The notes under the pieces: generated by a model | Seen by the model: only the letters and a program-made list of their open reading frames with translations | The model's database searches: none | Told to the model about the DNA's origin: nothing | NCBI GenBank assembly: GCA_964195155.1 | Contig: CAXMOP010000115.1 | Span: forward strand, 4,986-68,985 | DNA length: 64,000 nucleotides | Direction: 5' to 3' | DNA from: an uncultured Kiloniellales bacterium | GTDB taxonomy: Bacteria > Actinomycetota > Acidimicrobiia > Spongiisociales > UBA5794 | Shown: positions 1,869 to 63,512 of the stretch, one piece after another | Layout: every line of letters starts with the position of its first letter | How positions within the stretch are numbered: the stretch's first letter is position 1 | Program-made: the position numbers and the translations under genes

Positions 1869-2285
1869 ATGAAGAACCAAGACGCTCGCAGCTCCCTGTT
1901 GGGCAGGGCGATGACCGACAACGGCCTGTTCTCCGGCACCGCCGGCATCGTGCTCATCATCGGTGCGGCGTTCGGCCTCGGTGGCTGGATCGGCATCAAC
2001 GCCTGGCTCCTGGCCGGCCTCGGAGTCGGTCTGGTGGTGTACGCCGCCGATCTGTTGTGGTTGGCGCGCTCCTCCCGCATGATCGTCGCCGGCGGACGGG
2101 CCGCGGTGCTGGCCGACGTCGCCTGGGTGATCGCCGCCGCAGCGTTGATTGCCTTCAGCGCGGTGCTGACCCGGCAGGGAGAGCTGGCCCTCGCCATCGT
2201 CAGCATTGTCGTCGCCGGGTTCGCAGCCGCTCAATGGATCGGCCTGAGGCGACTCAGCGACGCTGAGGACCACACCGCGGTGTAG
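1869..2285 (+). CDS. Small integral membrane protein (4 predicted TM helices), divergent partner of the XRE/MmyB regulator
   Basis: ATG at 1869 with a GGAGGA Shine-Dalgarno sequence 5 nt upstream. The hydrophobic segments are clear. Confidence 0.6.
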   Translation: MKNQDARSSLLGRAMTDNGLFSGTAGIVLIIGAAFGLGGWIGINAWLLAGLGVGLVVYAADLLWLARSSRMIVAGGRAAVLADVAWVIAAAALIAFSAVLTRQGELALAIVSIVVAGFAAAQWIGLRRLSDAEDHTAV

Positions 2286-2303
2286 ACCGTGTAGACAAGG
2301 GGC

Positions 2304-2886
2304 GTGCTCATCCGACGGGCGGTTCTCGACGGGGTCGTAGCGGGCGAGATCGATCTCGCCTTTCGACGCTGGGATCGCCCGTCGGTCAAGGTCGGAACCC
2401 GACAGCGCACGGCGGTGGGGATCATCGAGATCACGGCCATGGAGGTGATCGACCTCGCCAACATCACCGACGAGGAGGCCGTCCGAGCCGGCGCGGCATC
2501 GGCGGCCGAGATCCGGGCATGGCTCGGAGCAAGAACCGGCTCGGTCTATCGCATCAGCCTCATATACGCGGGAACCGACCCCAGGGTGGCGTTGCGCAAG
2601 GCCGAGATCACTACCGATGAGGACCAGTCGAAGTTGGCCGCTCAATTGGACCGCTTCGATGGAACCGGGCGCCGCGGGCCTTGGACGGTTGCGGTGCTGC
2701 GGGCCATCGGAGATGCGCCCGGCACCCCGGCGGCGGGATCTCGCCTTGCGGTTCGGCCGCGAGAAGCGCCTCTTCAAAACCGACGTGCGGAAACTGAAGG
2801 AACTCGGCCTCACCGAGAGCCTGCGACCAGGGTATCGGCTGTCGCCGCGGGGCCGGTCGTTCCTGAAACGGCTCGACGAAGACTAG
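2304..2886 (+). CDS. Hypothetical protein with an apparent +1/-1 frameshift near 2724-2738 (frame 0 from 2304, frame 1 to 2886)
   Basis: The frame-0 product looks protein-like up to GDAPGTPAAG. Frame 1 continues as RDLALRFGREKRLFKTDVRKLKELGLTESLRPGYRLSPRGRSFLKRLDED. The switch falls in the run caccccggcggcggg. Downstream, frame 0 reads antisense through gtrA and is not coding. Confidence 0.4.
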
Positions 2887-3035
2887 AGGATGCGCGGATA
2901 GGTGATCGGCCTTCTCGACAGAGGTGCTTCTTTGCCTTCCGCTCTTGCTGCTTCGCAGCGGGCCGCTCGGGCCCCGGCTCAGCGGATACTCTTTCTCAGA
3001 TCGTGACCGGAATCGCGCCCTACCCGCTGAGCCTC

Positions 3036-3503
3036 TTAGTCGGCCGCTACCGGCTCAGCCGCTTCCTCCCCGGCGAGGGCACGGCCGAACACGATGTCAC
3101 GGTACGAGGCGAACTTGGGGAGCAGGATCATCACCGAGGCGAACAGATAGACCCCGTTGGCGGCAACGGCAGACAGCGGGCCGAAGAACGACTCGGCAAG
3201 CCACATGATGCCGGCAGTCACCGCCCAGGCAGCCCCATTGACCAGGTAGAACTGGAAGGTCTCGCGCCCGGACAGTTTCCCGTCGCGCAGCTCAAAGGTC
3301 CAGGTGCGGTTGAGCAGGTAGGAGAGGAACGTCGTCACGGCGAAGGCAACCGACACCGAAGCCACCGACGACCAGTCGAATCCGATCAGGAAGAGGTTGA
3401 ACAGCGCAAACGACACCACGGTATTGACCACGCCGACCACGCCGACCTTGACGAACTGGTCGAGCGACTCACGATTGAGGAAGCTCTCGACATACTGCTT
3501 CAC
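3036..3503 (-). CDS. GtrA-family small membrane protein (polysaccharide/lipid-sugar flippase-like)
   Basis: GTG at 3503 preceded by GAGAGGA. It is a 155-aa protein with 4 TM helices and matches the GtrA/DUF2304 profile (VKVGVVGVVNTVVSFALFNLF...). The GTGA overlap with the upstream gene's stop (3500-3503) indicates translational coupling. Confidence 0.8.
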   Translation of the reverse strand: MKQYVESFLNRESLDQFVKVGVVGVVNTVVSFALFNLFLIGFDWSSVASVSVAFAVTTFLSYLLNRTWTFELRDGKLSGRETFQFYLVNGAAWAVTAGIMWLAESFFGPLSAVAANGVYLFASVMILLPKFASYRDIVFGRALAGEEAAEPVAAD

Positions 3504-5725
3504 ACGCCGGTCCTCTCGTTCCGCTCCCGCCGCCGCAAATACGCATAGGCGGCCAGCCCACCAAGCGCGAGCACGGTGAGCACCATGCCGATGTTCTCGG
3601 CACCGGTGTTGCGAAACTCGAGGACTACATCTTCCTGGGTGGGAACGACCACCATCAACGACGGCGCGGCACGGTATGGCCCCTCGGCACCATCCACCTG
3701 CCAATTCGGGAAGTAGGAGATCTTGACCAGATGCGGAACACCAATGGCGGTGGTGGTAAACGACAAGCGATGGTTCTCGAGTACCACGTTGGTCACGGAG
3801 CCGCCCTCCGGATACGGATCGCTGGAGATGAGCCGATCGCCGACCGAGGTCACGGCGGGCCATTCCGCCGGACCGGTCTCGACGAGCCAGTGGTCGAGGT
3901 TGGCGACGTCGTCGTACCACTCGAGTGATGGCTCGAGGAAGTCGCCGCCACCGCCCCACACCGCAGGCGTGACGGTGGCCACGTCGACGAAGTCGGAGTC
4001 CGGCAGCGCGAAGATCGTCCACGGCAAGGCGACACCGACTTCAACGAGGCCTGAGTCTCGAGCCGCGGTTTCCCCACGTTCGGTGAAACTGACGTAATAG
4101 GCCACGTCGTAGAGGGCGAGATGCTGAATACCGCGATCGAGGTCGAAGCCCCGGTAGTCGAGGCCGCGCACCGGGTTGGACGGCCGATCACTGACTTCCG
4201 AGGCGTTGAGGAAGTGGAATGGTGTGGTGAGGGATGATTCGAAGAACAGACCCTCCATGGACGGGTGCTCCTCGCTCCAAAAGCCCGTCAGCATGAGGGC
4301 CATCGGCGTGCCGTACTGGTTGAGTTCGTGGTTCGCCTCCCACATCACCCGGCCAGGCGGGAGTCCGTCGATCTCCTGCATGAGGGCCTCGTATTCGTGG
4401 TAGTTGGGCTTGCCCTCATACCCCTCGTAGTTCCACTTGACCCAGCCCGGAACGTCGTGGATGTTGGCAATGGTGGCGACAAGCACCAGAAACCCGGCAA
4501 TGAGGGACCCGGCGATCAGCACGGTCCTGCGCGCCGACGATCGCCTGGCCACTTCGGTCACCGCGAGTCCCAACGCAATACCGGCAAATACAAACATCCC
4601 GAAATACCAGTACGGCAGCAGCCGGGCGTTGTAGAGGATCGTGACGCCAAGAAGGGGCAGCACGAGATATCCGACGATGGGCAGGACGGTCAACCACGCC
4701 AATGCCACCACGTCGTCACGTCGCAGCATGCTCCACACCACGCCGACACCGCCGAGGATGACGACCGGAACGAACTCTCCCGGGAGCGGGGTCCCGGGAC
4801 TCTGCTCGCCGACGAGACCCGTTACCGCCGACCACCCCATGTCGGTCGTCAGCCCGCCCATCACGCCGAGGATGAGCGGAAGTGCCCAGAACGCGGCAAT
4901 GCCGAAGCCAAGCAGCCACGAGGGAAACACGACCCGTGGCCCGCCCTTACGGAACAGGAGGGGCACCGTTGCGATGACGATGATCATCGTGGTGACGATG
5001 TGGCTGAGCGCGGTCAGCCCGAGCAGCACGCCGGCGAGCGGCGTCCAGCCTCGGCCCTCGCGCACGTCGCGCACGACCACGCCGAGATAGAGGATCGAGA
5101 GGGCAAAAGACCACGAGAAGGAGAACTCGCCGGCGAGGGTGGACTTGATGTTGGCGCCGAAGATCGAATAGCTCTCCATGAACAGAAACATCCCGCCGGC
5201 CACAGCGGCGATCCCTGCGATCGGACGGGAGAACCCGGACATGCGGGAAAACAGATAGGTCACGGCGGGGAGGGCAACCAGGCCGACGATGGTGACCAGC
5301 TTGAACGCGACCCCGTAGGGAAGGACCACGTCGAGCAGCACCGTCGTGACCGCAGGCAAAGGGAAGTAGAAGTAGAGGACGGGGAAACCGGCATACCAGG
5401 CGTTCGACCAGCCCAGCAGCCTTCCCGATGAAATCAGATTGTCCGCCAACACCTTCGGCAGCAGGACGTGGGCGCCCATATCTCCGCCGGTCGGGGTGTT
5501 GGCGACCAGCAGCTGCGGGAATCTGATGAGATCACCGCTGCCGATCGTGCCCAGGATTCCCGACATCACCAGCAGGATGAGCAAGGTGGGAGCGCCGACC
5601 AGGACCGCAATCACCCAGGTCGGCACACCCTGGCGCGGGGTGAGCGGACGGCGAGGAGGCGCCGACTCTGGCGGCGCGATCGCGGTGGTTGACACCAGCG
5701 GCAGGCTAGAGGAGGTGGTGAGCAA
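3500..5725 (-). CDS. Large polytopic membrane protein, GT-C-like glycosyltransferase candidate (about 12 TM N-terminal, about 250-aa extracytoplasmic C-terminus)
   Basis: 741 aa. The architecture and the position upstream of gtrA match a GtrC-like/GT-C transferase. Confidence 0.7.
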   Translation of the reverse strand: MLTTSSSLPLVSTTAIAPPESAPPRRPLTPRQGVPTWVIAVLVGAPTLLILLVMSGILGTIGSGDLIRFPQLLVANTPTGGDMGAHVLLPKVLADNLISSGRLLGWSNAWYAGFPVLYFYFPLPAVTTVLLDVVLPYGVAFKLVTIVGLVALPAVTYLFSRMSGFSRPIAGIAAVAGGMFLFMESYSIFGANIKSTLAGEFSFSWSFALSILYLGVVVRDVREGRGWTPLAGVLLGLTALSHIVTTMIIVIATVPLLFRKGGPRVVFPSWLLGFGIAAFWALPLILGVMGGLTTDMGWSAVTGLVGEQSPGTPLPGEFVPVVILGGVGVVWSMLRRDDVVALAWLTVLPIVGYLVLPLLGVTILYNARLLPYWYFGMFVFAGIALGLAVTEVARRSSARRTVLIAGSLIAGFLVLVATIANIHDVPGWVKWNYEGYEGKPNYHEYEALMQEIDGLPPGRVMWEANHELNQYGTPMALMLTGFWSEEHPSMEGLFFESSLTTPFHFLNASEVSDRPSNPVRGLDYRGFDLDRGIQHLALYDVAYYVSFTERGETAARDSGLVEVGVALPWTIFALPDSDFVDVATVTPAVWGGGGDFLEPSLEWYDDVANLDHWLVETGPAEWPAVTSVGDRLISSDPYPEGGSVTNVVLENHRLSFTTTAIGVPHLVKISYFPNWQVDGAEGPYRAAPSLMVVVPTQEDVVLEFRNTGAENIGMVLTVLALGGLAAYAYLRRRERNERTGV

Positions 5726-12101: not shown

Positions 12102-12796
12102 AGCGGATCGAGCTCATCCCCGTTGAGGGAGTTCCGGAGGTCCGGTCGGGCGACGAACTCGGCGGGATGATCGTCGCCGCCCTGGCGTCGTCGGGCGAGT
12201 CGCTCATCGACGGCGACGTGCTGGTCGTGACCCACAAGGTGATCTCGAAAGCCGAGGGACGGATCGCCGAGGTCGCTTCGGAGGAGGACTACCGAAAGCT
12301 GGTGGAGGACGAGGCCGAATCCATCATCCGCCGGCGGGGCGACCTCGTCATCACCAAGACGCGCCACGGCTTCATCTGCGCCAACGCCGGTGTCGATCGC
12401 TCGAATACCGCAGAGGGAACCGCGGTGCTGCTGCCGATCGAGCCGGATCGATCGGCCCATCGCCTTCGCGTCCAGATCCAGCACATGTTCGGGGTGTCGA
12501 TTGCCGTCGTAGTCACCGACACCTTTGGCCGCGCCTGGCGCCGCGGCCTGGTCGACGTGGCCATCGGGGTGTCTGGCCTGCCGGCGATCGTCGACCTGCG
12601 CGGCACCACCGACGCCTTCGGCCGAGTCCTCGACGTCACCGAGATCGCCCTCGTCGACGAGATCGCCGCTGCCGCCGACCTGGTGATGGGCAAGGCCAGC
12701 CAGGTCCCGGCGGCAATCCTGCGCGGGCTCACCCTCACCGGCGACGGCCGGGCCACCGACCTGGTCCGCCCCCCCGATGAAGACCTGTTCCGATGA
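12095..12796 (+). CDS. cofE: Coenzyme F420-0:L-glutamate ligase CofE (FbiB N-terminal domain type)
   Basis: An ATGGTGA overlap with the cofD stop. The VITHKVISKAEGR and ICANAGVD motifs are present. Confidence 0.85.
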   Translation: MVKRIELIPVEGVPEVRSGDELGGMIVAALASSGESLIDGDVLVVTHKVISKAEGRIAEVASEEDYRKLVEDEAESIIRRRGDLVITKTRHGFICANAGVDRSNTAEGTAVLLPIEPDRSAHRLRVQIQHMFGVSIAVVVTDTFGRAWRRGLVDVAIGVSGLPAIVDLRGTTDAFGRVLDVTEIALVDEIAAAADLVMGKASQVPAAILRGLTLTGDGRATDLVRPPDEDLFR

Positions 12797-12878
12797 GTCG
12801 CGAGTCACGAGTCGCGAGTCGCGAGCCCGAATCTTCGGTCGTGGTTTTGCTCGCGACTCGCGACTCGCGTCTGGCGTC
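12795..12878. repeat. Inverted heptamer arrays (GAGTCGC)x4-loop-(GCGACTC)x3 forming a long hairpin
   Basis: Directly visible as gagtcgcgagtcacgagtcgcgagtcgcgag ... ctcgcgactcgcgactcgcg, between cofE and fpg. Confidence 0.9.
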
Positions 12879-12883
12879 TTCTC

Positions 12884-13771
12884 ATGCCTGAGCTGCCTGA
12901 GATCGAGGCGTACCTGTATGCGCTGCGACCGCGGATCGTTGGCCGCCAACTGAAGGAGCTCCGGGTGGCCAGCTTCTCGCTGCTCCGCACCTACGACCCA
13001 CCGGTGTCGGCGGTGGAAGGCAAGGAGGTTGCCGGGGTGCACCGCATCGGGAAGCGCATCGCCATCGACCTCGAGGACGATCTCGCCATCGTGGTTCACC
13101 TGATGATCGCCGGACGGTTGAAGTGGGAGAAGGTGGGCAAGGCGATTCCAAAACGTTACGGGCTCGCCGCCCTCGACTTCGACGACGGAACGCTGCTGCT
13201 GACCGAGGCCGGCACAAAGCGACGGGCGACGATGCACATCGTGCGGGGAGACGAGTCGCTCGATGCGCTCGACCCCGGCGGCGCCGAGCTCGCCGACTTG
13301 GACGTGGCAGGTTTCAAGGAACGTCTACTCGTAGAGCGCCACACCCTCAAGCGAAGCCTCACCGATGCCCGATTCCTTTCTGGAATCGGTGGCGCGTTCG
13401 CCGATGAGATCCTGTGGCAGGCCAAGCTGTCGCCTACCCAGATCAACACCAACCTCGACGACGAGGAGGTCGAGCGTCTGTACCGCGCCAGCGTCGGCGT
13501 CATGGATCGGTGGACCGAGGTGCGCATCGACGAGACCGGCGACGGCTTCCCCGAGAAGGTCACCGCCTTTCATCCCGGCATGGGGGTGCACGGCAAGTTC
13601 GGCGAGGCTTGCCCGGAATGTGGCGCCCCGGTGCAGCGCATCGTGCATGGTCGCCGCGAGACCAACTACTGCCCGGGGTGTCAGACCGGAGGCAGGATCC
13701 TCGCCGACCGATCACTGTCGCGGCTCCTCAAGGACGACTGGCCGAAGACCCTGGACGAGCTAGAGGACTAG
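12884..13771 (+). CDS. Formamidopyrimidine-DNA glycosylase / endonuclease VIII family (Fpg/Nei)
   Basis: The N-terminus MPELPEIE carries the catalytic Pro2 and Glu3. The C-terminal zinc finger is CPECGAPVQR...CPGCQ. Confidence 0.85.
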   Translation: MPELPEIEAYLYALRPRIVGRQLKELRVASFSLLRTYDPPVSAVEGKEVAGVHRIGKRIAIDLEDDLAIVVHLMIAGRLKWEKVGKAIPKRYGLAALDFDDGTLLLTEAGTKRRATMHIVRGDESLDALDPGGAELADLDVAGFKERLLVERHTLKRSLTDARFLSGIGGAFADEILWQAKLSPTQINTNLDDEEVERLYRASVGVMDRWTEVRIDETGDGFPEKVTAFHPGMGVHGKFGEACPECGAPVQRIVHGRRETNYCPGCQTGGRILADRSLSRLLKDDWPKTLDELED

Positions 13772-13965
13772 CTGCGACCGCGTCGGATCTCGACGTGTAT
13801 GTTCGGGGGTTGTTTCCACGTTTGAGCAGGGTTTCCGCGGACCGTCGAGGGTACCCGCAGTGCAGATCTGGACCGCCGTTATTCCCTGACGTGACTCTTC
13901 CATGTTTCTTTTGTTTCTGTTGTTTCTGGCCGGTTTGTGTCATACCTGGTTGATAGGTTGTGGCC

Positions 13966-14639
13966 ATGGAAGACATCATCTTCGAGGGCCGTTCGCTCGA
14001 CGAGATAGAACAGATTCTTGCTCGTTGCGAGTCGGCGGTGGGGCGTCTGCGCTCGATACAGATGCGGGCACTGCGCCACGTCGACCGTGTCCAAGGCCCA
14101 CTGGCCGATGGCTGCCGCTCCATGGGGAATGGGTGACGGGCCGCCTCGACGTTTCACCGGACACCGCCAAGAGTCTGGTCTCCACCGCCCAACGCCTCGG
14201 TGAGCTGCCGGCAGTCGAAGAAGGCGCCGCCGGCGGTGACCTGACCTACGACCGGGCCGTGGCGGTGGCGAGGCTCGCCGAAGGCGGAGACGGCACCACC
14301 GCGTTGGAAGAGTCCGCCGGCCTCGACGTAGCCGGCATCCACCGTCAAGTAGCGCAGCGGCGTCGTCTCAGCCGACACCAACAAGCATTCGACGACACGT
14401 ACGCCTGGGTGCGACGGAATGGTGACGAGATCCTCCATCTTCGGCTCGTGCCGGAGCTGGACCCCGCAGCGAACGAGTCGGCCGGCTACTTCCACGTGGA
14501 GGATGCGGACTCCTGGCATGCTGCGTGGACGGGGGGCGATGTGCATCTCACCGCCATCGAAGACCATCCGTCGGGGATGCGCGAGTTCTCGTTCTCCGAT
14601 CCAAACGGCAACCTGATCCGGGTCGGACACAACCTCTGA
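13966..14639 (+). pseudogene. Degenerate DUF222 (REP13E12-type HNH endonuclease) N-terminal remnant with a frameshift near 14125, fused in frame to a VOC/glyoxalase-like C-terminal half-domain
   Basis: Frame 1 reads MEDIIFEGRSLDEIEQILARCESAVGRLRSIQMRALRHVDRVQG then stops. Frame 0 continues EWVTGRLDVSPDTAKSLVSTAQRLGELP..., the DUF222 signature W...RL.LS...A. The last 60 aa (YFHVEDADSWHAAW...FSFSDPNGNLIRV) are a glyoxalase-type beta-alpha-beta-beta-beta half. No HNH domain is present. Confidence 0.5.
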
Positions 14640-14662
14640 GCCGGGCTCGACGAGTGATTGCG

Positions 14663-15589
14663 CTACCGGCTGGCCAGGAACTCACGAACGTCGTCCGATA
14701 GCTGGCGACTCTGGGGCGAGTCGAAGGTATAGAAGCCGTGCCGCGCCCCCTCGTACACCTTGTACTCGACATCGAAGGCCCGTTGCCGGAATCGTTCGGC
14801 ACAAATCCGAGACGATCGTGCCAATCGATCCTTGGATCCCGCGACGATGAAGGTAGATGGGAGCGAATCAAACGTCAGGTCCATCGGCGTCACGGAAAGA
14901 TGCGGCGCTACTTCTGCTGCAAGAGCTGCCTGACCGGCGTAACTCCGGAGCATCAGAGACGCGGGGCCGAACCCGTCTTCGATCCAGGTGAGACGGTCAA
15001 GCACCCCCTGAATCGATACAACACTCTGAATCGCCGGCACCTCTCCCGTCATCTCAACCCCGAGGGGCTGCGCCAGGCCGGGATTGGAGATCATGATCGC
15101 CGCCATCATCGCCAGGTTGCCACCAGCCGAATCACCCATCAGATGCACTGACTCGTACTCGGGATGGTGACGACGTATCCACGCCAACGCGGCGAGGGTC
15201 GAACGCAGGATGTGCGGATGCGGATACTCCGGAGCCAACGGGTACTCGACATTGAAGACCGGATGTCCTGCCGCGGCGACATCGAGTAATCGATACGTGG
15301 AGATGTCAGAGCTGCCGCTGATCCAACCGCCGCCGTGAAAATAGACCACTGCGGTCATCGGCGACGACTTCGGCGCGGCGGGTATGAAATCGAGATACTC
15401 GGCCGCGTTGGGCCCATATTGGTGGCGACCGACCGTTTCCGGCGGCCTGCCCTTCCGAAAACGAAATGCCGCTGCCACCGATCGACTCATGAACCTTGAC
15501 ACGCCAACGGAGAGCCGGTCACGAAACGGAGCCCTCACGAGGGAGACCCCGTCGGTCGGCTCGCTCGGTTCCATCCGCGGCACACTCAC
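14663..15589 (-). CDS. Alpha/beta-hydrolase esterase/lipase (HSL/Aes family)
   Basis: The HGGGW oxyanion motif and the GDSAGG nucleophile elbow are present. The start is GTG at 15589, or alternatively ATG at 15490. Confidence 0.75.
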   Translation of the reverse strand: MSVPRMEPSEPTDGVSLVRAPFRDRLSVGVSRFMSRSVAAAFRFRKGRPPETVGRHQYGPNAAEYLDFIPAAPKSSPMTAVVYFHGGGWISGSSDISTYRLLDVAAAGHPVFNVEYPLAPEYPHPHILRSTLAALAWIRRHHPEYESVHLMGDSAGGNLAMMAAIMISNPGLAQPLGVEMTGEVPAIQSVVSIQGVLDRLTWIEDGFGPASLMLRSYAGQAALAAEVAPHLSVTPMDLTFDSLPSTFIVAGSKDRLARSSRICAERFRQRAFDVEYKVYEGARHGFYTFDSPQSRQLSDDVREFLASR

Positions 15590-15636
15590 TACTCACCCTC
15601 TGGGTGCGTTTTTGCGACCCTGGATCTACCCGTCCG

Positions 15637-16581
15637 TCACAGGTTCTCCCGGAACCAGTCGATGGTCCGGACCAGGCCTTCCTCGATGGTCGTCCACGGC
15701 TCCCAGCCGAGATCGCGAGCTGCCCGGGACGGATCGAGGCAGGACCGTTGCTGCTCCCCCGCTCTCGCTGCGGCGTGACGTGGTTCGACATCCGATCCGA
15801 CGATGGCCGCCATCTTGGTGTAGAGGTCGACCACATTCGTCTCAACGCCGGTGCCGATATTGATGTACGCACCGCCGCCTTGCAAAGCCGCCCGCCAGCA
15901 AGCGTCGGTGACGTCTTCCACATAGACGTAGTCCCGGGTCTGCTTGCCGTCGCTGTAGATCGTCGACACCCTGCCCCCGAGCAGGTCACCGGCGAAGATC
16001 GCCACCACCCCGGCCTCGCCGTGTGGGTCTTGGCCGGGCCCGTACACGTTGGAGAAGCCGAGCGAGACAAAATCGACTCCGTGGGCACGGCGGTAGTACG
16101 CGAGATAGTCGTCGGCGACTTTCTTGGACACGCCGTACGGGGAGGCGGGCAGTCGCGTTTCGGATTCCTTGGTCGGAATCTGATCGGTGTCTCCGAACGT
16201 CGCTCCGCCGGAGGAAGAAAACACCACCCGCTCGACCGCCGCCTCCCGCGCCGCCTGAAGCAGGTTGATGGTGCCGATCAGGTTGACGTCGGCATCGAAG
16301 GCCGGGTCGACGACCGAAGCCCGCACGTCGATCTGTGCCGCTAAATGAAAGATGACCTGCGGCGTGAACCCCACCACGACCTGGCGTAGCTCGGGGGCGC
16401 GGATGTCCATCTGATGGAAGTGGACCTGCCCGCGATCGCGTGCGGGCGCCAGTCGGGACAACATCCCCGATGATAGGTTGTCGATGACCAGCACCTCGGT
16501 GCCCTCGTCGACGAGCCGTTCGACCAGGTTCGATCCAATGAACCCTGCTCCACCGGTGACGACGGCTTTGGAGGTTGCCAT
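15637..16581 (-). CDS. NAD-dependent epimerase/dehydratase (UDP-glucose 4-epimerase-like)
   Basis: ATG at 16581 is confirmed. The Rossmann motif VVTGGAGFIGSNL is followed by YGVSK (YxxxK). A TGATG overlap links it to the upstream gene. Confidence 0.8.
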   Translation of the reverse strand: MATSKAVVTGGAGFIGSNLVERLVDEGTEVLVIDNLSSGMLSRLAPARDRGQVHFHQMDIRAPELRQVVVGFTPQVIFHLAAQIDVRASVVDPAFDADVNLIGTINLLQAAREAAVERVVFSSSGGATFGDTDQIPTKESETRLPASPYGVSKKVADDYLAYYRRAHGVDFVSLGFSNVYGPGQDPHGEAGVVAIFAGDLLGGRVSTIYSDGKQTRDYVYVEDVTDACWRAALQGGGAYINIGTGVETNVVDLYTKMAAIVGSDVEPRHAAARAGEQQRSCLDPSRAARDLGWEPWTTIEEGLVRTIDWFRENL

Positions 16582-19598: not shown

Positions 19599-19629
19599 GA
19601 GTCGCGAGTCGCCAGTCGCCAGTTGCGAG
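19599..19629. repeat. Heptamer array GAGTCGC GAGTCGC CAGTCGC CAGTTGC
   Basis: Directly visible between the carboxylase beta and alpha genes. Confidence 0.85.
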
Positions 19630-19700
19630 CCCGATCGCTCGTAACGGAATGCTCACGTTCGAGGTCCGACCCCCACCCACCCTTCTCCTAGGATTCACCC

Positions 19701-23125: not shown

Positions 23126-25720
23126 ATGCTTTTTGGCGATGGTACCCAGGGGGGCCATTTCTATTCCCCACCTCCACCGGTCTATTCGCCACCAGCAAGA
23201 ACGTTCATGACCATGGATCCCAATATCCACGAGGCCCATCGCAGGGACCGCCGCCGCAGGCGGCTCCCATCGTTACTGCTGCTCACGATCATTGTGATCG
23301 TCGGGGCGAGCTGGGTCGGGTTGTTCGGGTTCCTCGGCTCCACCTCCGCAATGGGCACCGTCGAGGAAGTGGAGGAGCGGTTTCTCTGCGACATCAGCGG
23401 CGTCGATCTTTCCTTCCCCGATGTTTCCCGCCTCTCCGCGGTCGAGACCAGCGATGGCGTCGAGCTGGGCAAGCTCTCAGAGCGGAACAGCCAGCCGATC
23501 CCGATCGACGAGATCCCCGAGCTCGTGGTCAATGCGTTGCTCTCCGCCGAAGACAAGAGCTTCTACGAGCACGAGGGGGTCGACTTCCTGGCGGTGTTCC
23601 GTGCCGCCACCAGCGGTGGCGAGAGCGGTGCTTCCACGATCACCCAACAGGTCGTGAAGCAGAACTTCCTCAGCTCGGATCGCACCATCGAGCGAAAGAT
23701 CTGTGAGGCGCAGTTGGCGACCGAGCTGGAACGCCTATATACGAAGGACCAGATCCTCGAGTTCTATGCCAACTCGGTCTTTTTCGGCGCCAACGCCTAC
23801 GGGATCACGGCGGCAGCCCAGGAGTACTTCGGGAAGCCGCTCGAGGACCTCGACGCTGCCGAGGCTGCCACGTTGGTCAGCCCGATCAGGAACCCAAGCT
23901 TCTACCACCCACGCCAGAACCCGAGCAACGCCATCGGTGTCCGCAATCGCACCATCGCGAGCATGGAGGAGAACGGGTTCATCACCGCCGAGGAAGCAAC
24001 CGCGGCCAAGAGCCAGTCACTTGGTGTGCTCCCCCACTCCGAACGCGAGGAACTCGCTCCACAGGTCATGATCGCGGTGCGTCGCGCATTGCTTGACGAC
24101 ACCACAAACCGATTTGGTCTCGGCACTACCTATACCGAGCGCAAGCAAGCGGTGTTCGGGTGCCCGGCTGCGGACACCACGTGCGCCGGCGGGGGCGGCC
24201 TGAATATCGAAGTCACCGTCAACTTCGATTGGCAAACCGAAGGAACCCGGATCTTGCGGGCCTGGTATCGGCACGATGCCGGCGGGCCAACCGGCGCCAT
24301 CGCGACCGTGGAGAATGCGACCGGCGCGATTCGCGTGCTGGCGTCTGGCGTCGAGTACGGCACCGACCTCGCCGCCGGGGAGCGGCCATACGACCTTGCT
24401 CTCGAAGGGCGACGCCACGCCGGGTCGGCATTCAAGCCCTACACGCTGGCGGCGGCGCTCGAAAGCGGTGATCTGAACGGGCGGCCGGTCACCTTGAACT
24501 CGTACTGGGACCGAGGCAGGCCGGCCGTGATCGATTGTGGCTTCCCGTGTTCCTCGCGCGGCAATTTTTGGGTGGTCGATGCGGGCCTGAACACCCCTCA
24601 TGAGTTGCGTACCCTCGAGTCCGCAACGGTGTCGTCGCTGAATCCTGTCTACGCCAGGTTGATTGCCGCCATCGGCGCCGAGCCGGTCGTCGACATGGCC
24701 TATCGGCTCGGCATCCGCACGTCGGAGGTGAAGCCGGTGTATGCGGTGACCCTGGGCGCAGCGTCGGTCAGTCCGCTGGAGATGGCATCTGCGTACTCGA
24801 CCTTCGCCAACCAGGGGAACTACCTGGAGCCTTACCTGATCGAACGGATCACCGACTCGTCGGGCAACGTGATCTACCAGCATCGTCCCCAGCCGGAGCG
24901 AGTGCTCTCGCCGCAAATCGCTGCGGCGGTGACGACGACGCTCGAAAAGGTCGTCGCCGGGGGCACCGGTACCCGGGCCAAGATAGACCGGCCGCAGGCG
25001 GGCAAGACCGGAACGGCAACCGACAACACCGACGTGTGGTTCGTCGGATTCATCCCGCAATACTCCACTGCGGTGTGGGTCGGCTATCCCGACGGCGCGG
25101 TTCCGATGAAGAACTTCACGATCTTTAACGACGTCGAAGGCCGCGAGCAGTCGATTCGCCAGGCCTTCGGGGGCACGGTCGCCGCTCCCGCCTGGCGCCA
25201 GTTCATGCTCTACCTCACCGACGGTCTCGAGGTTCTCGACTTTCCCGAGCCGCCGGAGGGCACCAGCCAGTACTACCGCGTGCCGGGGACGCGGGTACCC
25301 AATATCAACCTCGAGAACATGAACCTCGCCAGGATCGAGGATCTGATCTATGCCGCCCACCTGCGCGTCGCGCTCGTCGAGGTCCCATCGCTCGAAGAGG
25401 TGGACACGCTGCTCAGCATGACGCCGGGATCGGGCGCGTCGATGGGTCAGGGCGGGGCCGTGACCATCGAGATCTCGATCGGCATCCCTGAGGAGATCGT
25501 GAGCCCGAACCTGGTCGGTCTGCCGGTAATCGAAGTCGATCCCACCCTCAATGCGTTCCTCGCCGAGTTCGCCGTCCAGCTCAACTGGGTGCGGCAAGAT
25601 GTCGAGACACCCGATCCCGCCCAGTGGGGACGCGTCGTCGCCACCGACCCCCCGCCGGGGGCCCTGGTGAGGCCCGGCGACACGATCATCGTGTCGGTTG
25701 GAGTCCAGCCAAGTAGCTGA
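23126..25720 (+). CDS. Class A penicillin-binding protein (PBP1A: transglycosylase plus transpeptidase plus a C-terminal PASTA-like tail)
   Basis: ATG at 23126 follows GGAGGG. A proline-rich cytoplasmic tail and a TM helix precede the domains. The GT51 motifs [12 protein letters not shown] and RKICE, the SAFKP serine and the KTGT box are all present. Confidence 0.85.
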
Positions 25721-25744
25721 GTCGCGAGTCGCGAGTCGCGAGTC
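25719..25744. repeat. (GAGTCGC)x3.5 heptamer array immediately after the PBP1A stop
   Basis: Directly visible. Confidence 0.9.
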
Positions 25745-37124: not shown

Positions 37125-37388
37125 CGACACCCCCGGACCCTCCACAATTTCGATCCTCAACGATCACGGATCATACGACTCAGACTATGAGAGGAAACGG
37201 ACCATGGTTCCCCATGACGTCCGGCTCAGCTAGCTCCTAGACGCCGAAGGAAGAGCGATCGCCGAATGGAATGGTGCTGCGGACGACCAGACGCTCGACT
37301 CTCTGCTCGAACAGTCCCTCGGGTGATCAACCCGGCCGAACGCCACCAAACCAATGACCTTCGGCGGCACGTCAAACCTCCGACCACA

Positions 37389-37414
37389 CCCGCCCATAAC
37401 CGGCAATATGCGCC
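37389..37414. promoter_or_regulatory. Island palindromic motif copy f: CCGCCCATAACCGGCAATATGCGCC (reverse complement of copy a type)
   Basis: Directly visible in the divergent spacer between the FG-GAP gene and the HNH gene. Confidence 0.6.
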
Positions 37415-37585
37415 CCCTACGTCCCGGTCTCCAGAGGCAGGACCGGGTACAGCACGAACACCGATCACCCGGTCTGAGCGACATCGCCGACATCCACGAG
37501 TGCTCTGGAACGGCACTTCGGAGTGCGGTCAGTTTCCTTGCATTTCTTCTGGAATCTGTCACCCGCACCGTGTAGGATCGAACAT

Positions 37586-38821
37586 ATGTTCGATAGAGAA
37601 TTCACCTCTGTCCCCGATGGGCTCGACGACATGGAACCAAGCGTGGAGTTGGCAACCGCGCTCAATGACATCGACGTCGATCTGGTGTCGCCGCATGACC
37701 GGATCATCGTCATCCGCGCCTACGCCCGAATGGAGTCCTACTACCAGGCCCGCAAGTATCGCGCCATGGCCTCGGTCGCCGACGCCTTGGAAGAAGACGA
37801 CATGCAGCATGGCCTCGACACCGCTGCCGCCGAGATCCAAGCCGCCCTGTGTCTGACCCGCCGCGCTACCGAAACCGAACTCGGGTTCGCGTTGGATCTG
37901 TGGCATCGCCTTCCGCAGGTCTGGTCTGCGTTGGCGGCGGGGATGATCGACTACCGGAGGGCCCGGGTCATCTCCCTCGGGACGGTCCACCTCGACACCG
38001 GTGCCGCATGGGAAGTCGTCGAACGCATCTTGGAGGACGCCGGCCGGCTCACCTCCGGCGAGCTGCGGAGCCGTCTGCACCGGATGGCGATCGAAGCCGA
38101 CCCGGAGGACGCGCGGCTCCGCTACGAGGACGCCGTCAAGGAGCGGCGAGTGGTTCTCGAACCCGCCGATGACGGGACCGCCAACCTGCTCGGCCTCCAG
38201 CTGGCTCCCCATCGCGCCGCAGCTGCTTCCCGTCATGTGAACCATCTCGCCCGATCGCTGAGGACGAGGGACGAGACCCGCACCATGGATCAACTCCGCG
38301 CCGACGTCCTCATCGACCTGCTCTTGGGCAAGGCACACAGCGGCAAGAAGGCGGGAGCGGTGAATTTGCGGGTCGATCTGGAAACCCTCTCAGGCCTCGC
38401 CGAAGACGCAGGTGAGTTGAACGGCTACGGCCCGGTGATCGCCGACATCGCCCGCCAGATCGCCGCTGAAGCCGAAGATGCCGAATGGCGCTACGCCATC
38501 ACCGACCCGCACACCGGCCAATTGATCACCGACGGGACCACCCGCCGTCGCCCCACCGCCGCGTTGCGCCGCACCGTGGAGGCAAGAGATCAGACCTGTG
38601 TGTTCCCCGGCTGTCGCGTGCCCGCGGTCGACTGCGACTTCGACCACAGCACCCGATGGGCCGACGGCGGCGAAACCACAGAAGACAACGGCGCCCCCCT
38701 CTGTCGCCACAACCACATCACCAAGGACCAACTCGGTTGGAGCTACCGGCGGCTCCGTGACGGCCGCTACCGATGGCGCAGCCGACTCGGCCACACCTAT
38801 TACAGCGCCAGATCCCCATAG
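37586..38821 (+). CDS. DUF222 (REP13E12-family) HNH endonuclease
   Basis: The N-terminal DUF222 region is followed by a C-terminal HNH motif, CVFPGCRVPAVDCDFDHSTRWADGGETTEDNGAPLCRHNH. Confidence 0.8.
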   Translation: MFDREFTSVPDGLDDMEPSVELATALNDIDVDLVSPHDRIIVIRAYARMESYYQARKYRAMASVADALEEDDMQHGLDTAAAEIQAALCLTRRATETELGFALDLWHRLPQVWSALAAGMIDYRRARVISLGTVHLDTGAAWEVVERILEDAGRLTSGELRSRLHRMAIEADPEDARLRYEDAVKERRVVLEPADDGTANLLGLQLAPHRAAAASRHVNHLARSLRTRDETRTMDQLRADVLIDLLLGKAHSGKKAGAVNLRVDLETLSGLAEDAGELNGYGPVIADIARQIAAEAEDAEWRYAITDPHTGQLITDGTTRRRPTAALRRTVEARDQTCVFPGCRVPAVDCDFDHSTRWADGGETTEDNGAPLCRHNHITKDQLGWSYRRLRDGRYRWRSRLGHTYYSARSP

Positions 38822-52137: not shown

Positions 52138-52167
52138 GGACTCGCGACTCGCGACTCGCGACTCAGT
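52138..52167. repeat. (GACTCGC)x4 heptamer array in a divergent promoter region
   Basis: Directly visible. Confidence 0.9.
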
Positions 52168-62493: not shown

Positions 62494-63420
62494 ATGACCG
62501 ATCGCGCTCTGCGAACAGCAGGCGACGCAGTCGGCCGCTATCTGGGCGAGGTGTCGGGATACAACCTGCTCGACGCGAACGAGGAGGTGCGCCTCGCCCG
62601 TGCGATGGAAGGGGGGCGCCGAGCTCTGCAGCGCCTCGAGGACGGTGGACGGTTCACCGCACTAGAACACGCCGCCCTCTACGAGGAAGTCCGCACCGGC
62701 GAAGAGGCCAAGGCCACGTTCATCCGATCCAATCTCCGCCTGGTCGTATCGATCGCCAAGCGATACACGGGACGCGGCCTCGACCTGCTCGATCTGATCC
62801 AGGAAGGGAACCTCGGCTTGATCAGGGCCGTCGAGAAGTTTGACTGGCGCAAGGGCTTCAAGTTCTCCACCTACGCCACGTGGTGGATTCGTCAATCAAT
62901 CACGAGAGGTTTGGGAAACCACGGGCGCACCATTCGCCTGCCCGTGCAAATGATCGACGTCGTGCGCACGGTCCAGGAGACCGACCTCGCCCTGCAGGAG
63001 CGGTATCGGCGCAAACCCACGGTTGCCGAGATTGCCCTCACCAGCGGGCTCGACGAGGAGCAAGTGATCATCGCTCTCTCCGCCCCCGGCGAAACCGTGT
63101 CGCTCGACCGACCGGTGAGCAAGAACGGCGATGCCCACCTCGGCGACTTCGTCCAGGACGAGCGCACGCCCGACCCGTTCTCCGTCGCCGCCGAGCGGGC
63201 CCGCTGCGAGGAGGTTGCCAGGGCGTTGAGCATGCTCGACGAGCGCGAGGGCAAGGTCCTCATGATGCGGTACGGCATCGGCGGCGACAGCCCGCACACC
63301 CTCTCCGACGTCGGAGCCGCACTCGGGATCACCCGTGAACGCGTCCGCCAGATCGAGACCCGGGCCCTGAACAGGCTGCGCGACCCCCACACGATCTGCG
63401 ACCTGCGGAGCCTGCTGTGA
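62494..63420 (+). CDS. Group-2 sigma-70 family RNA polymerase sigma factor (SigB-like)
   Basis: ATG at 62494 follows GGTGAGAGG. Region 2 reads LDLIQEGNLGLIRAVEKFD...FSTYATWWIRQSITR and region 4 reads LGITRERVRQIETRALNRLR. Confidence 0.85.
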   Translation: MTDRALRTAGDAVGRYLGEVSGYNLLDANEEVRLARAMEGGRRALQRLEDGGRFTALEHAALYEEVRTGEEAKATFIRSNLRLVVSIAKRYTGRGLDLLDLIQEGNLGLIRAVEKFDWRKGFKFSTYATWWIRQSITRGLGNHGRTIRLPVQMIDVVRTVQETDLALQERYRRKPTVAEIALTSGLDEEQVIIALSAPGETVSLDRPVSKNGDAHLGDFVQDERTPDPFSVAAERARCEEVARALSMLDEREGKVLMMRYGIGGDSPHTLSDVGAALGITRERVRQIETRALNRLRDPHTICDLRSLL

Positions 63421-63512
63421 GTCGCTAGTCGCGAGTCGCGAGACGCGAGCAAGAACGAGCGTGAGCCTTGGGCTCTCGACTCAAGACTCTCGACTCAAGA
63501 CTCTCGACTCAA
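63419..63512. repeat. Inverted heptamer arrays (GAGTCGC-type x4) and (CTCTCGA CTCAAGA)x3 forming a long hairpin between convergent genes
   Basis: Directly visible. Confidence 0.9.

Follow-up and report, generated by a model that had tools for sequence, protein, structure and literature searches.

Two overlapping open reading frames (ORFs) on the plus strand, at 13966-14136 and 14133-14639, lie between the stop codon of an fpg gene and a convergent alpha/beta-hydrolase gene in contig CAXMOP010000115.1, which derives from an uncultured member of the Acidimicrobiia. They raise the question of whether this locus is a gene, a fusion of genes or a relic, and of how it came about. The stretch analyzed here, referred to as the window, comprises 64 kb of the contig and has a G+C content of 65%. 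A reading of the bare sequence (the original prediction) had placed two loci of the 13E12 type in the window, one intact and one degenerate, and had suggested that the degenerate one was an element of this kind that decayed after inserting into a glyoxalase gene. Proteins of this type carry a DUF222 domain and an HNH nuclease domain. The two loci are confirmed by Pfam matches; the insertion is not supported. It is probable that a resident DUF222-HNH gene was joined by a deletion to a fragment of a glyoxalase gene and later frameshifted, and that both copies in the window have kept a promoter of the PafBC type.

Throughout, loci of relatives are labeled L001 to L180 and proteins P0001 to P0252. 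L002 is a contig of JGI 3300027997, L003 is contig k141_2225115 of ENA ERZ27250328, L008 a Ga0255058 contig, and L004 stems from the metagenome-assembled genome (MAG) GCA_964194755.1. Two protein searches were performed, a word-indexed search of 5.8 billion proteins and an exhaustive search of 1.84 billion representatives, the latter with the ORF of 168 amino acids (aa) as query. Pfam cut-offs are 24.4 bits for DUF222 (PF02720) and 21.4 bits for HNH. The coordinates of all features are listed in Table 1.

The two parts of the degenerate locus

Once a single base is restored, the translated remnant aligns with positions 3-91 of the 306 positions of PF02720 at 31.1 bits (E 2e-7), above the cut-off, as anticipated for a degenerate DUF222 copy starting near 13966. 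At the DNA level, window positions 13927-14380 are 95.4% identical to positions 2-462 of L003, the 5' end of the intact gene for P0002, and 85.6% identical to L004. In the 5.8-billion-protein search, the matches consist of the locus' own 168-aa product (P0001), about 30 full-length DUF222-HNH proteins (347-387 aa; P0002 with 373 aa and P0003 with 371 aa are the closest), and stand-alone glyoxalases. P0002 to P0012 all fall within the same range of 347-387 aa and match both PF02720 and PF01844; close relatives are 57-87% identical. The remnant is cut off at about codon 141 of this gene, so that the C-terminal 230 aa including the HNH domain are gone. The predicted absence of HNH from the degenerate copy is thereby borne out, as is the presence of the DUF222 N-terminal region; its end, formerly set at about 14300, is moved to 14381 by the DNA alignments.

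The expected frameshift near 14125 proved to be a deletion of 1 nucleotide (nt) that reduces GGGGG to GGGG relative to L003 and L004. The same deletion occurs in the independent contigs L002 and L008, and the 56-aa product that it creates (P0158) is recorded from eight contigs in NCBI, JGI, Logan and ENA assemblies; the frameshift is therefore no isolated assembly artifact. Programmed frameshifting does not explain it either, as there is no slippery motif, the relatives are in frame and the shifted allele is merely one G short. The TGA made by the frameshift overlaps the GTG start called for the 168-aa ORF (GTGA, 14133-14136), a geometry that could permit termination-reinitiation.

The glyoxalase part begins where the DUF222 part ends. 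Window positions 14383-14644 are 81.7% identical to positions 724-985 of L001, which extend from codon 44 to just past the stop of an intact glyoxalase gene (L001 594-980). Its product P0014 (128 aa) is the closest of the stand-alone glyoxalases (126-142 aa), and the fragment's protein is about 78% identical to the matching part of it. The fragment matches Glyoxalase PF00903 at positions 48-120 of 121 and the BLMA family NF033156, both below the family cut-offs, and the family scores lie far under them (23 vs 140 bits). Like BLMA-family and other VOC proteins it thus aligns to these profiles; unlike them, it has lost the first beta-alpha unit. The first 43 glyoxalase codons are absent, and DUF222-derived sequence replaces the N-terminal beta1-alpha1 segment PILPxRSLDExxAFYxxLGF. 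A complete VOC/BLMA protein has two beta-alpha-beta-beta-beta modules in about 120-130 aa, of which only the equivalent of P0014 residues 44-128 is present here. In the family alignment, the conserved W/Y of PWGMREF is S in the fragment. The DUF222 reading frame does run into glyoxalase sequence, as had been proposed, and the glyoxalase part amounts to the C-terminal two thirds of the domain.

DUF222 homology ends at 14381 and glyoxalase homology starts at 14383, with the two parts joined in frame. The base between them, 14382, is C in the window and G in L008 and L180; the change from G to C turns Glu into Gln. If 14382 is read as G, the DNA alignments of the two parents overlap by about 2 nt (GA), which fits illegitimate end-joining. 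The locus exists in several near-identical haplotypes. L180 has the same locus at 99.8% identity with GGGGG, reads RHQE followed by AFDD across the junction and encodes an uninterrupted ORF of 224 aa (P0161), which is a member of the 90% identity cluster of P0001. L008 combines GGGG with Glu at the junction, and the window and L002 combine GGGG with Gln.

From these data a history can be proposed. It starts from a resident DUF222-HNH gene with its own promoter, located in a variable spacer between the convergent fpg and epimerase genes; a BLMA-like glyoxalase gene would have lain downstream in the same orientation. A single deletion at a microhomology of about 2 nt would have removed the DUF222-HNH gene from codon ~142 onward including HNH, any intervening DNA and 43 glyoxalase codons, leaving an in-frame chimeric ORF of 224 aa as in L180. 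The loss of 1 nt in the run of five G would then have split the chimera into ORFs of 56 aa and 168 aa, and the G-to-C change at 14382 would have altered the junction codon last. The haplotype series, from in-frame fusion through frameshift to junction substitution, would represent a natural snapshot of a deletion-born chimera arising and decaying.

Since the catalytic half of one parent and the beta1-alpha1 core of the other are missing, the chimera is read as a non-functional pseudogene. By its sequence, 13966-14639 is a remnant, the pseudogenised orthologue of a resident 13E12-type DUF222-HNH gene, and what it documents is ordinary gene decay, not a new system. Public gene calls give two hypothetical proteins of 56 and 168 aa at this locus, which annotation should flag as a pseudogene.

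A promoter motif shared by both copies

The upstream regions of both copies had been proposed to share a T-rich segment. This holds for 13903-13929 and 37538-37558 by composition and position. The first tract lies in the only stretch of the window with at least 15 T per 27 nt (peak, 18 of 27). About 15 stretches reach at least 13 T (or A) per 27 nt, and the second tract is in one of them. On its own, the shared hexamer TTCTGG would be near chance expectation, unlike the composition and position of the tracts. The tract is degenerate in L004 and L007 and weakly conserved across the family. It may well be an UP-like accessory promoter element.

Upstream alignments of relatives reveal a better conserved element directly downstream of the T-rich tract, namely a promoter motif. 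In the window, the pattern TGTC-N12-TAnnnT has exactly two matches on both strands, with 1.44 expected by chance anywhere. One match ends 6 nt before the ATG of the remnant; the other, TGTCAC-N10-TAGGAT (TGTCACCCGCACCGTGTAGGAT) at 37557-37578, ends 7 nt before the ATG of the intact copy at 37586. We calculate a probability of about 5e-10 for both placements. The promoter of the remnant is identical in L003 and L004.

This motif was surveyed at 83 gene starts, drawn from 80 loci of Acidimicrobiia MAGs that a profile of the remnant's subfamily had retrieved and from metagenome loci. It was found at 77 of them, and in each of these 6-7 nt separate the end of the -10 hexamer from an in-frame ATG or GTG. 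The family logo is gTTTcTGTCAcAcc-N-tGaTAcgTT and includes a conserved TTT 5' of GTC. In the second subfamily, to which the intact window copy belongs, three of four additional members carry the motif (L010, L174 and L178). Across 1.19 Mb of sequence from the loci, 90 of the 109 pattern matches precede DUF222 genes. The few other sites include those before genes for RuvC (L117, minus strand), a PD-(D/E)XK nuclease (L104, minus strand) and a protein of the single-stranded DNA-binding (SSB) family (L119, about 2425). The motif also occurs at position 3782 of L177, before a gene for a 316-aa protein without Pfam match that lies directly downstream of a DUF222-HNH gene. The sites before RuvC, PD-(D/E)XK and SSB genes suggest a PafBC-like damage regulon in Acidimicrobiia.

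The PafBC motif is described as tGTCgg(N10)tA(N3)T with an essential GTC; this triplet, at about -26, is recognized by the helix-turn-helix of PafB, and the -10 hexamer by sigma-A (PMC8635444). The elements found here agree with it in tGTC..(N10)..TAnnnT, in the invariant GTC, in the lack of a -35 element and in a canonical -10 hexamer. They differ in the conserved TTT 5' of GTC, in the fixed distance of 6-7 nt to the start codon and in the T-rich tract that often lies upstream. Given the actinobacterial promoter geometry, a -10 hexamer that ends 6-7 nt before the start codon predicts a leaderless mRNA. Transcription of both copies would accordingly begin at the start codon and, by analogy, would be activated upon DNA damage by the WYL activator PafBC, which adapts the sigma-A RNA polymerase.

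In M. tuberculosis, 13E12 genes are induced by DNA damage and carry RecA_NDp and/or LexA boxes (PMC3381160). The predicted PafBC-type promoter is a trait of the family that is known from M. tuberculosis and is here extended, on motif evidence, to a distant actinobacterial class. The near-universal presence of a predicted leaderless PafBC-type promoter before the DUF222-HNH genes of Acidimicrobiia is the most useful general result of this analysis, and the motif may offer a direct way to recognize the DNA-damage regulon of uncultured lineages from sequence.

The promoters of L090, L096, L103 and L174 have, instead of a plain T-rich tract, an imperfect palindrome, TTTCT-N2-4-AGAAA, which is absent from the window copies. 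This palindrome could serve as the binding site (operator) of a second regulator.

Weighing the possible origins of the chimera

To place the locus in context, its flanks were compared with those of relatives, including 80 related loci fetched with the fpg gene. What lies between fpg and the epimerase gene differs by lineage (L010 1054-3905; L004 2255-5187; L007 5001-8044; window 13772-15636), and in the clade of the window this spacer is a variable island. In nine more distant relatives the site is empty, with the two genes abutting and 5-51 nt between the coding ends; the gap in L011 is 145 nt. The spacer of L010 contains a DUF222-HNH gene (59% identity) that belongs to the subfamily of the 37.6-kb copy, together with genes read by eye as ECF (extracytoplasmic function) sigma-like and anti-sigma-like. 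In L004 the order is fpg, a gene for a 579-aa Asp-box-repeat protein, and an intact DUF222-HNH gene (P0003), and the flanks are 88-91% identical to the window. In L007, CofD, CofE and Fpg are followed directly by an intact DUF222-HNH gene of 371 aa, with flanks at 79% nucleotide identity. From these intact orthologues at the same position in L004 and L007 it follows that the DUF222-HNH gene is a long-standing resident of the site in this clade. Within the fpg-epimerase spacer of L011 (6885-7024), two tandem copies of about 27 nt, CAGTTACCAGTTCTCAGCAAGAAGGGA, were observed.

L004 has the 579-aa gene intact (2255-3994), with the same sequences on either side, and in L009 the gene starts at the corresponding point. 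In the window, its leftovers are the ATG with three further codons (13799-13810) and the last 26 codons with the stop (13809-13889, TGA at 13887-13889), joined out of frame. The window reads VVSTFEQGFRGPSRVPAVQIWTAVIP followed by the stop, compared with VVSTFQQTFSGPPTIPAVQIWTALIP and stop in L004. The breakpoints lie in GGGGGT and GGCGGT; a second deletion just upstream of the DUF222 gene took out the 579-aa gene between short GGNGGT repeats. These alignments point to two separate deletions in the spacer of the window lineage, and the spacer now contains fragments of three genes.

The same comparison bears on the original explanation, the decay of a REP13E12-type element after its insertion into a glyoxalase gene. 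Several observations would suit an insertion: glyoxalase coding sequence follows the DUF222 fragment directly and in the same direction, related MAGs contain several dispersed DUF222-HNH genes as repeated units of about 1.2 kb, and a different DUF222 subfamily occupies the same spacer in L010. Such an event would, however, leave a 5' glyoxalase piece upstream of the DUF222 remnant, and none is present in 13772-13965, where the fpg flank, what is left of the 579-aa gene and the DUF222 promoter explain the entire sequence. The junction also truncates the DUF222 gene, so that at least one deletion is needed anyway, and the intact orthologues in L004 and L007 stand at the same position with a divergence comparable to that of the flanks. 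An insertion is accordingly very unlikely.

Equally improbable is that the chimera is a functional fusion, born by deletion and expressed from the DNA-damage promoter, with the frameshifted alleles perhaps yielding two pieces via the GTGA at 14133-14136. In favor of this reading, the junction is in frame and the promoter unchanged, one allele is an uninterrupted 224-aa ORF, the fusion is present in several independent metagenome assemblies, and new genes have been described to arise by deletion-born fusion (bioRxiv 10.64898/2026.01.05.697752). With those described cases the locus shares a single deletion that joined fragments of two unrelated genes in frame behind the upstream promoter; it differs in that most haplotypes were later frameshifted, both functional cores are gone and nothing indicates selection. 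Several points speak against function: an in-frame junction has a one-in-three chance of arising, the frameshifted allele is the common one (eight contigs vs one), and the chimera has neither the nuclease domain nor the VOC beta1-alpha1 core and carries S in place of the conserved W/Y. In addition, all three differences among the near-identical haplotypes inside the chimera are non-synonymous or frameshifting.

The protein searches also speak against a fusion family. DUF222 and glyoxalase similarity were found together in one protein in neither the 5.8-billion nor the 1.84-billion search beyond the cluster of the population itself, to which the DUF222-N::VOC-C architecture is confined (P0001, P0158-P0163). 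In the 1.84-billion search, DUF222-type matches begin at query residues 1-13 and glyoxalase-type matches end at residues 162-168. A few full-length glyoxalases reach back over the junction (P0185 from residue 38, P0252 from residue 31), without similarity to DUF222. The region had been expected to be a remnant unless it proved to translate into a conserved protein family in other genomes, and no conserved DUF222-N::VOC-C family was found.

The least credible alternative is a sequencing or assembly artifact at the frameshift, with the uninterrupted 224-aa chimera encoded in this genome too: the difference is a single base in a homopolymer and L180 does have GGGGG, but the window, L002 and L008 all have GGGG, the 56-aa product comes from eight contigs, a run of 4-5 G is short for a systematic error, and L180 has the lowest coverage, 3.8x.

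Decay of the resident gene by deletion and frameshift is thus preferred, and several points weigh against it. The undeleted precursor, a DUF222-HNH gene followed by this glyoxalase gene, was not found in any contig, nor was a DUF222 gene followed by this glyoxalase or the Abhydrolase_3 gene in any fetched locus, and L001, which holds the closest intact glyoxalase, is not syntenic with the window locus; we infer that the two genes were adjacent before the deletion. L180 is the sole unframeshifted haplotype, and at its low coverage the fifth G could be an error. The ratio of non-synonymous to synonymous substitution rates (dN/dS) on the remnant lineage rests on only three lineage-specific codon changes and has no power. 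As to the promoter, a crude and uninformative WYL motif screen of the window and the fetched loci detected no PafBC, and the T-rich tract is present in only about a third of family promoters: the words TTTC[TC] or TTCTT occur between -50 and -6 of the motif in 26 of 73, compared with 0-13 in control windows.

The intact copy, its family and neighboring features

The gene at 37586-38821 had been predicted to be a full DUF222-HNH gene, and this is the case. Its product P0038 matches DUF222 at 75.4 bits (E 6.3e-21). For HNH, the Pfam score of 19.2 bits is just under the cut-off, PHROG HNH families match with E 9e-5, and the protein keeps all invariant Cys, Asp and His columns of its subfamily alignment, as expected of an HNH protein. 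P0038 is identical in eight contigs and has more than 1800 full-length relatives. The AlphaFold2 model has a mean predicted local distance difference test score (pLDDT) of 68.7, with a confident helical N-terminal domain and a poorly modeled HNH region. No sequence match to the DUF222-HNH protein was found in the PDB, and a Foldseek comparison with the PDB returned nothing significant (best E ~0.7, with recurring weak ParB/Noc matches), from which no conclusion is drawn. The function of DUF222-HNH (13E12) proteins is still undefined in the 2026 literature (PMC13061034). Upstream of the intact copy, 425 nt (37161-37585) are without an obvious gene; their last ~50 nt hold the T-rich tract and the predicted promoter.

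The two window copies, 24 kb apart, are not detectably similar in a pairwise comparison (blastp E = 2) and lack DNA similarity. The profiles of their subfamilies do align, with an hhalign probability of 97.8%, an E of 8e-13 and 23% identity. Counting family members by tblastn with the 37.6-kb protein had been proposed; run on the window, this search matched only the protein itself and missed the remnant. BLAST counts therefore fail here and profile methods are needed.

In related MAGs, several DUF222-HNH copies occur per genome. Copy pairs within a genome share 87-97% identity along some 1.2 kb, a stretch that begins shortly before the -26 element and ends about 30-100 nt beyond the stop codon. 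Their left boundaries vary, and neither target-site duplications nor terminal (inverted) repeats were found at the ends of these pairs. Truncated copies elsewhere account for 2 of the 48 starts examined. In L118 (about 2880-2946), a DUF222-HNH unit starts about 10 nt after a sequence resembling the 3' end of a tRNA gene (GGTTCGAATCCTGCC...). The sister copy in L119, 97% identical and located 670 kb away on the same contig, has unrelated upstream DNA.

The called-gene tables list no phage-like genes (integrase, prophage) beside either window copy, and scans of IMG/VR with both subfamily profiles gave no relatives. Only seven plasmid records and two weak phage records were obtained, and PADLOC gave no match. 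This near-absence from phage, plasmid and defence collections implies that the family is not obviously phage, plasmid or defence cargo.

The 13E12 family corresponds to PF02720, and the 13E12/REP13E12 genes of M. tuberculosis (Rv1128c, Rv1148c, Rv1945, Rv3466) have the same architecture of PF02720 with a C-terminal HNH domain (PMC13157036). Further likenesses are the multi-copy, dispersed occurrence in related genomes, the RecA_NDp/PafBC-type promoter (PMC3381160) and the existence of truncated copies in both. The host here differs, belonging to Acidimicrobiia and not to Mycobacterium, and neither a LexA box nor a prophage is evident. REP13E12 in the strict sense is a dispersed ~1.4-kb repeat of the M. 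tuberculosis complex, with several copies per genome that closely resemble one another in DNA, and it carries the attB site for the prophages phiRv1 and phiRv2; the window copies share no DNA similarity and reach their 23% identity at the profile level. Free-standing HNH homing endonuclease genes are likewise compact single-gene HNH units, and the intragenomic copies in related MAGs have little in common outside promoter, ORF and up to ~100 nt of further sequence. In contrast to homing genes, they have no intron, intein or phage context and are almost absent from phage and plasmid collections; homing is hypothetical here.

One wider conjecture, which we consider unlikely if somewhat less so than the alternatives weighed above, is that the unit of -26 element, -10 hexamer and leaderless DUF222-HNH ORF (~1.2 kb) is an autonomous selfish element triggered by DNA damage across Actinomycetota. 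Activation by PafBC would make the nuclease, whose breaks would promote copying into new intergenic sites and so account for the presence of two unrelated subfamilies in the fpg-epimerase spacer of different genomes. The breaks would also drive local microhomology deletions like the two in the window, making the family an engine of genome rearrangement. The 13E12 loci of M. tuberculosis are hotspots of inversion and gene conversion, which is consistent with such an engine.

Table 1 Features of the degenerate locus, its flanks and the intact copy in the window
Feature	Position	Strand	Evidence and remarks
fpg/nei-type DNA glycosylase gene, 295 aa, conserved left anchor	12884-13771	+	Fapy_DNA_glyco, H2TH and zf-FPG on the identical L002 gene
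Remains of 579-aa Asp-box-repeat protein gene	13799-13889	+	Comparison with L004 and L009; ~1.64 kb deleted
T-rich tract, 2.9 tandem copies of TGTTTCTGT	about 13903-13929	+	Tandem Repeats Finder (TRF), period 9; 9-35 nt upstream of the -26 element
Predicted PafBC/RecA-NDp-type promoter TGTCAT-N10-TAGGTT (TGTCATACCTGGTTGATAGGTT)	13938-13959	+	Ends 6 nt before the ATG at 13966
5' part of DUF222-HNH pseudogene, original frame	13966-14136	+	Codons 1-53, three aberrant codons and frameshift-made TGA; 56 aa; product P0158
Frameshifting 1-nt deletion	14124-14127	+	GGGG vs GGGGG in L003, L004 and L180; DNA alignments
DUF222 N-terminal domain continued, shifted frame	14128-14381	+	About codons 55-141 of 371-373
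Deletion junction and BLMA-like VOC/glyoxalase codons 44-128 with stop	14382-14639	+	Alignment to L001; NCBIfam BLMA and Pfam matches
alpha/beta-hydrolase gene (Abhydrolase_3), remaining intact spacer cargo	14663-15589	-	Among fetched loci only in this lineage
NAD-dependent epimerase/dehydratase gene, conserved right anchor	15637-16581	-	In more distant relatives, stop codon abuts that of fpg
Region upstream of intact copy: T-rich TTGCATTTCTTCTGGAATC and predicted promoter	37538-37578	+	T-rich 37538-37558; promoter 37557-37578
Intact DUF222-HNH gene, 411 aa, P0038, second, very divergent subfamily	37586-38821	+	Pfam, PHROG, subfamily alignment

Scans of the whole window against Rfam and for tRNA genes gave no match, and a scan for sigma-70 promoters and terminators was uninformative. 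A search for repeats and inverted repeats in 13700-14700 returned only short matches at chance level. Elsewhere in the window, a palindromic repeat made of tandem copies of the heptamer GAGTCGC and of its complement is dispersed over intergenic positions (12796-12879, 19599-19634, 25718-25744, 52139-52165 and 63418-63503). The copy between cofE and fpg forms a long predicted hairpin of -59 kcal/mol (z = -6.3 vs shuffles) and resembles in look a repetitive extragenic palindrome (REP) or a miniature inverted-repeat transposable element (MITE).

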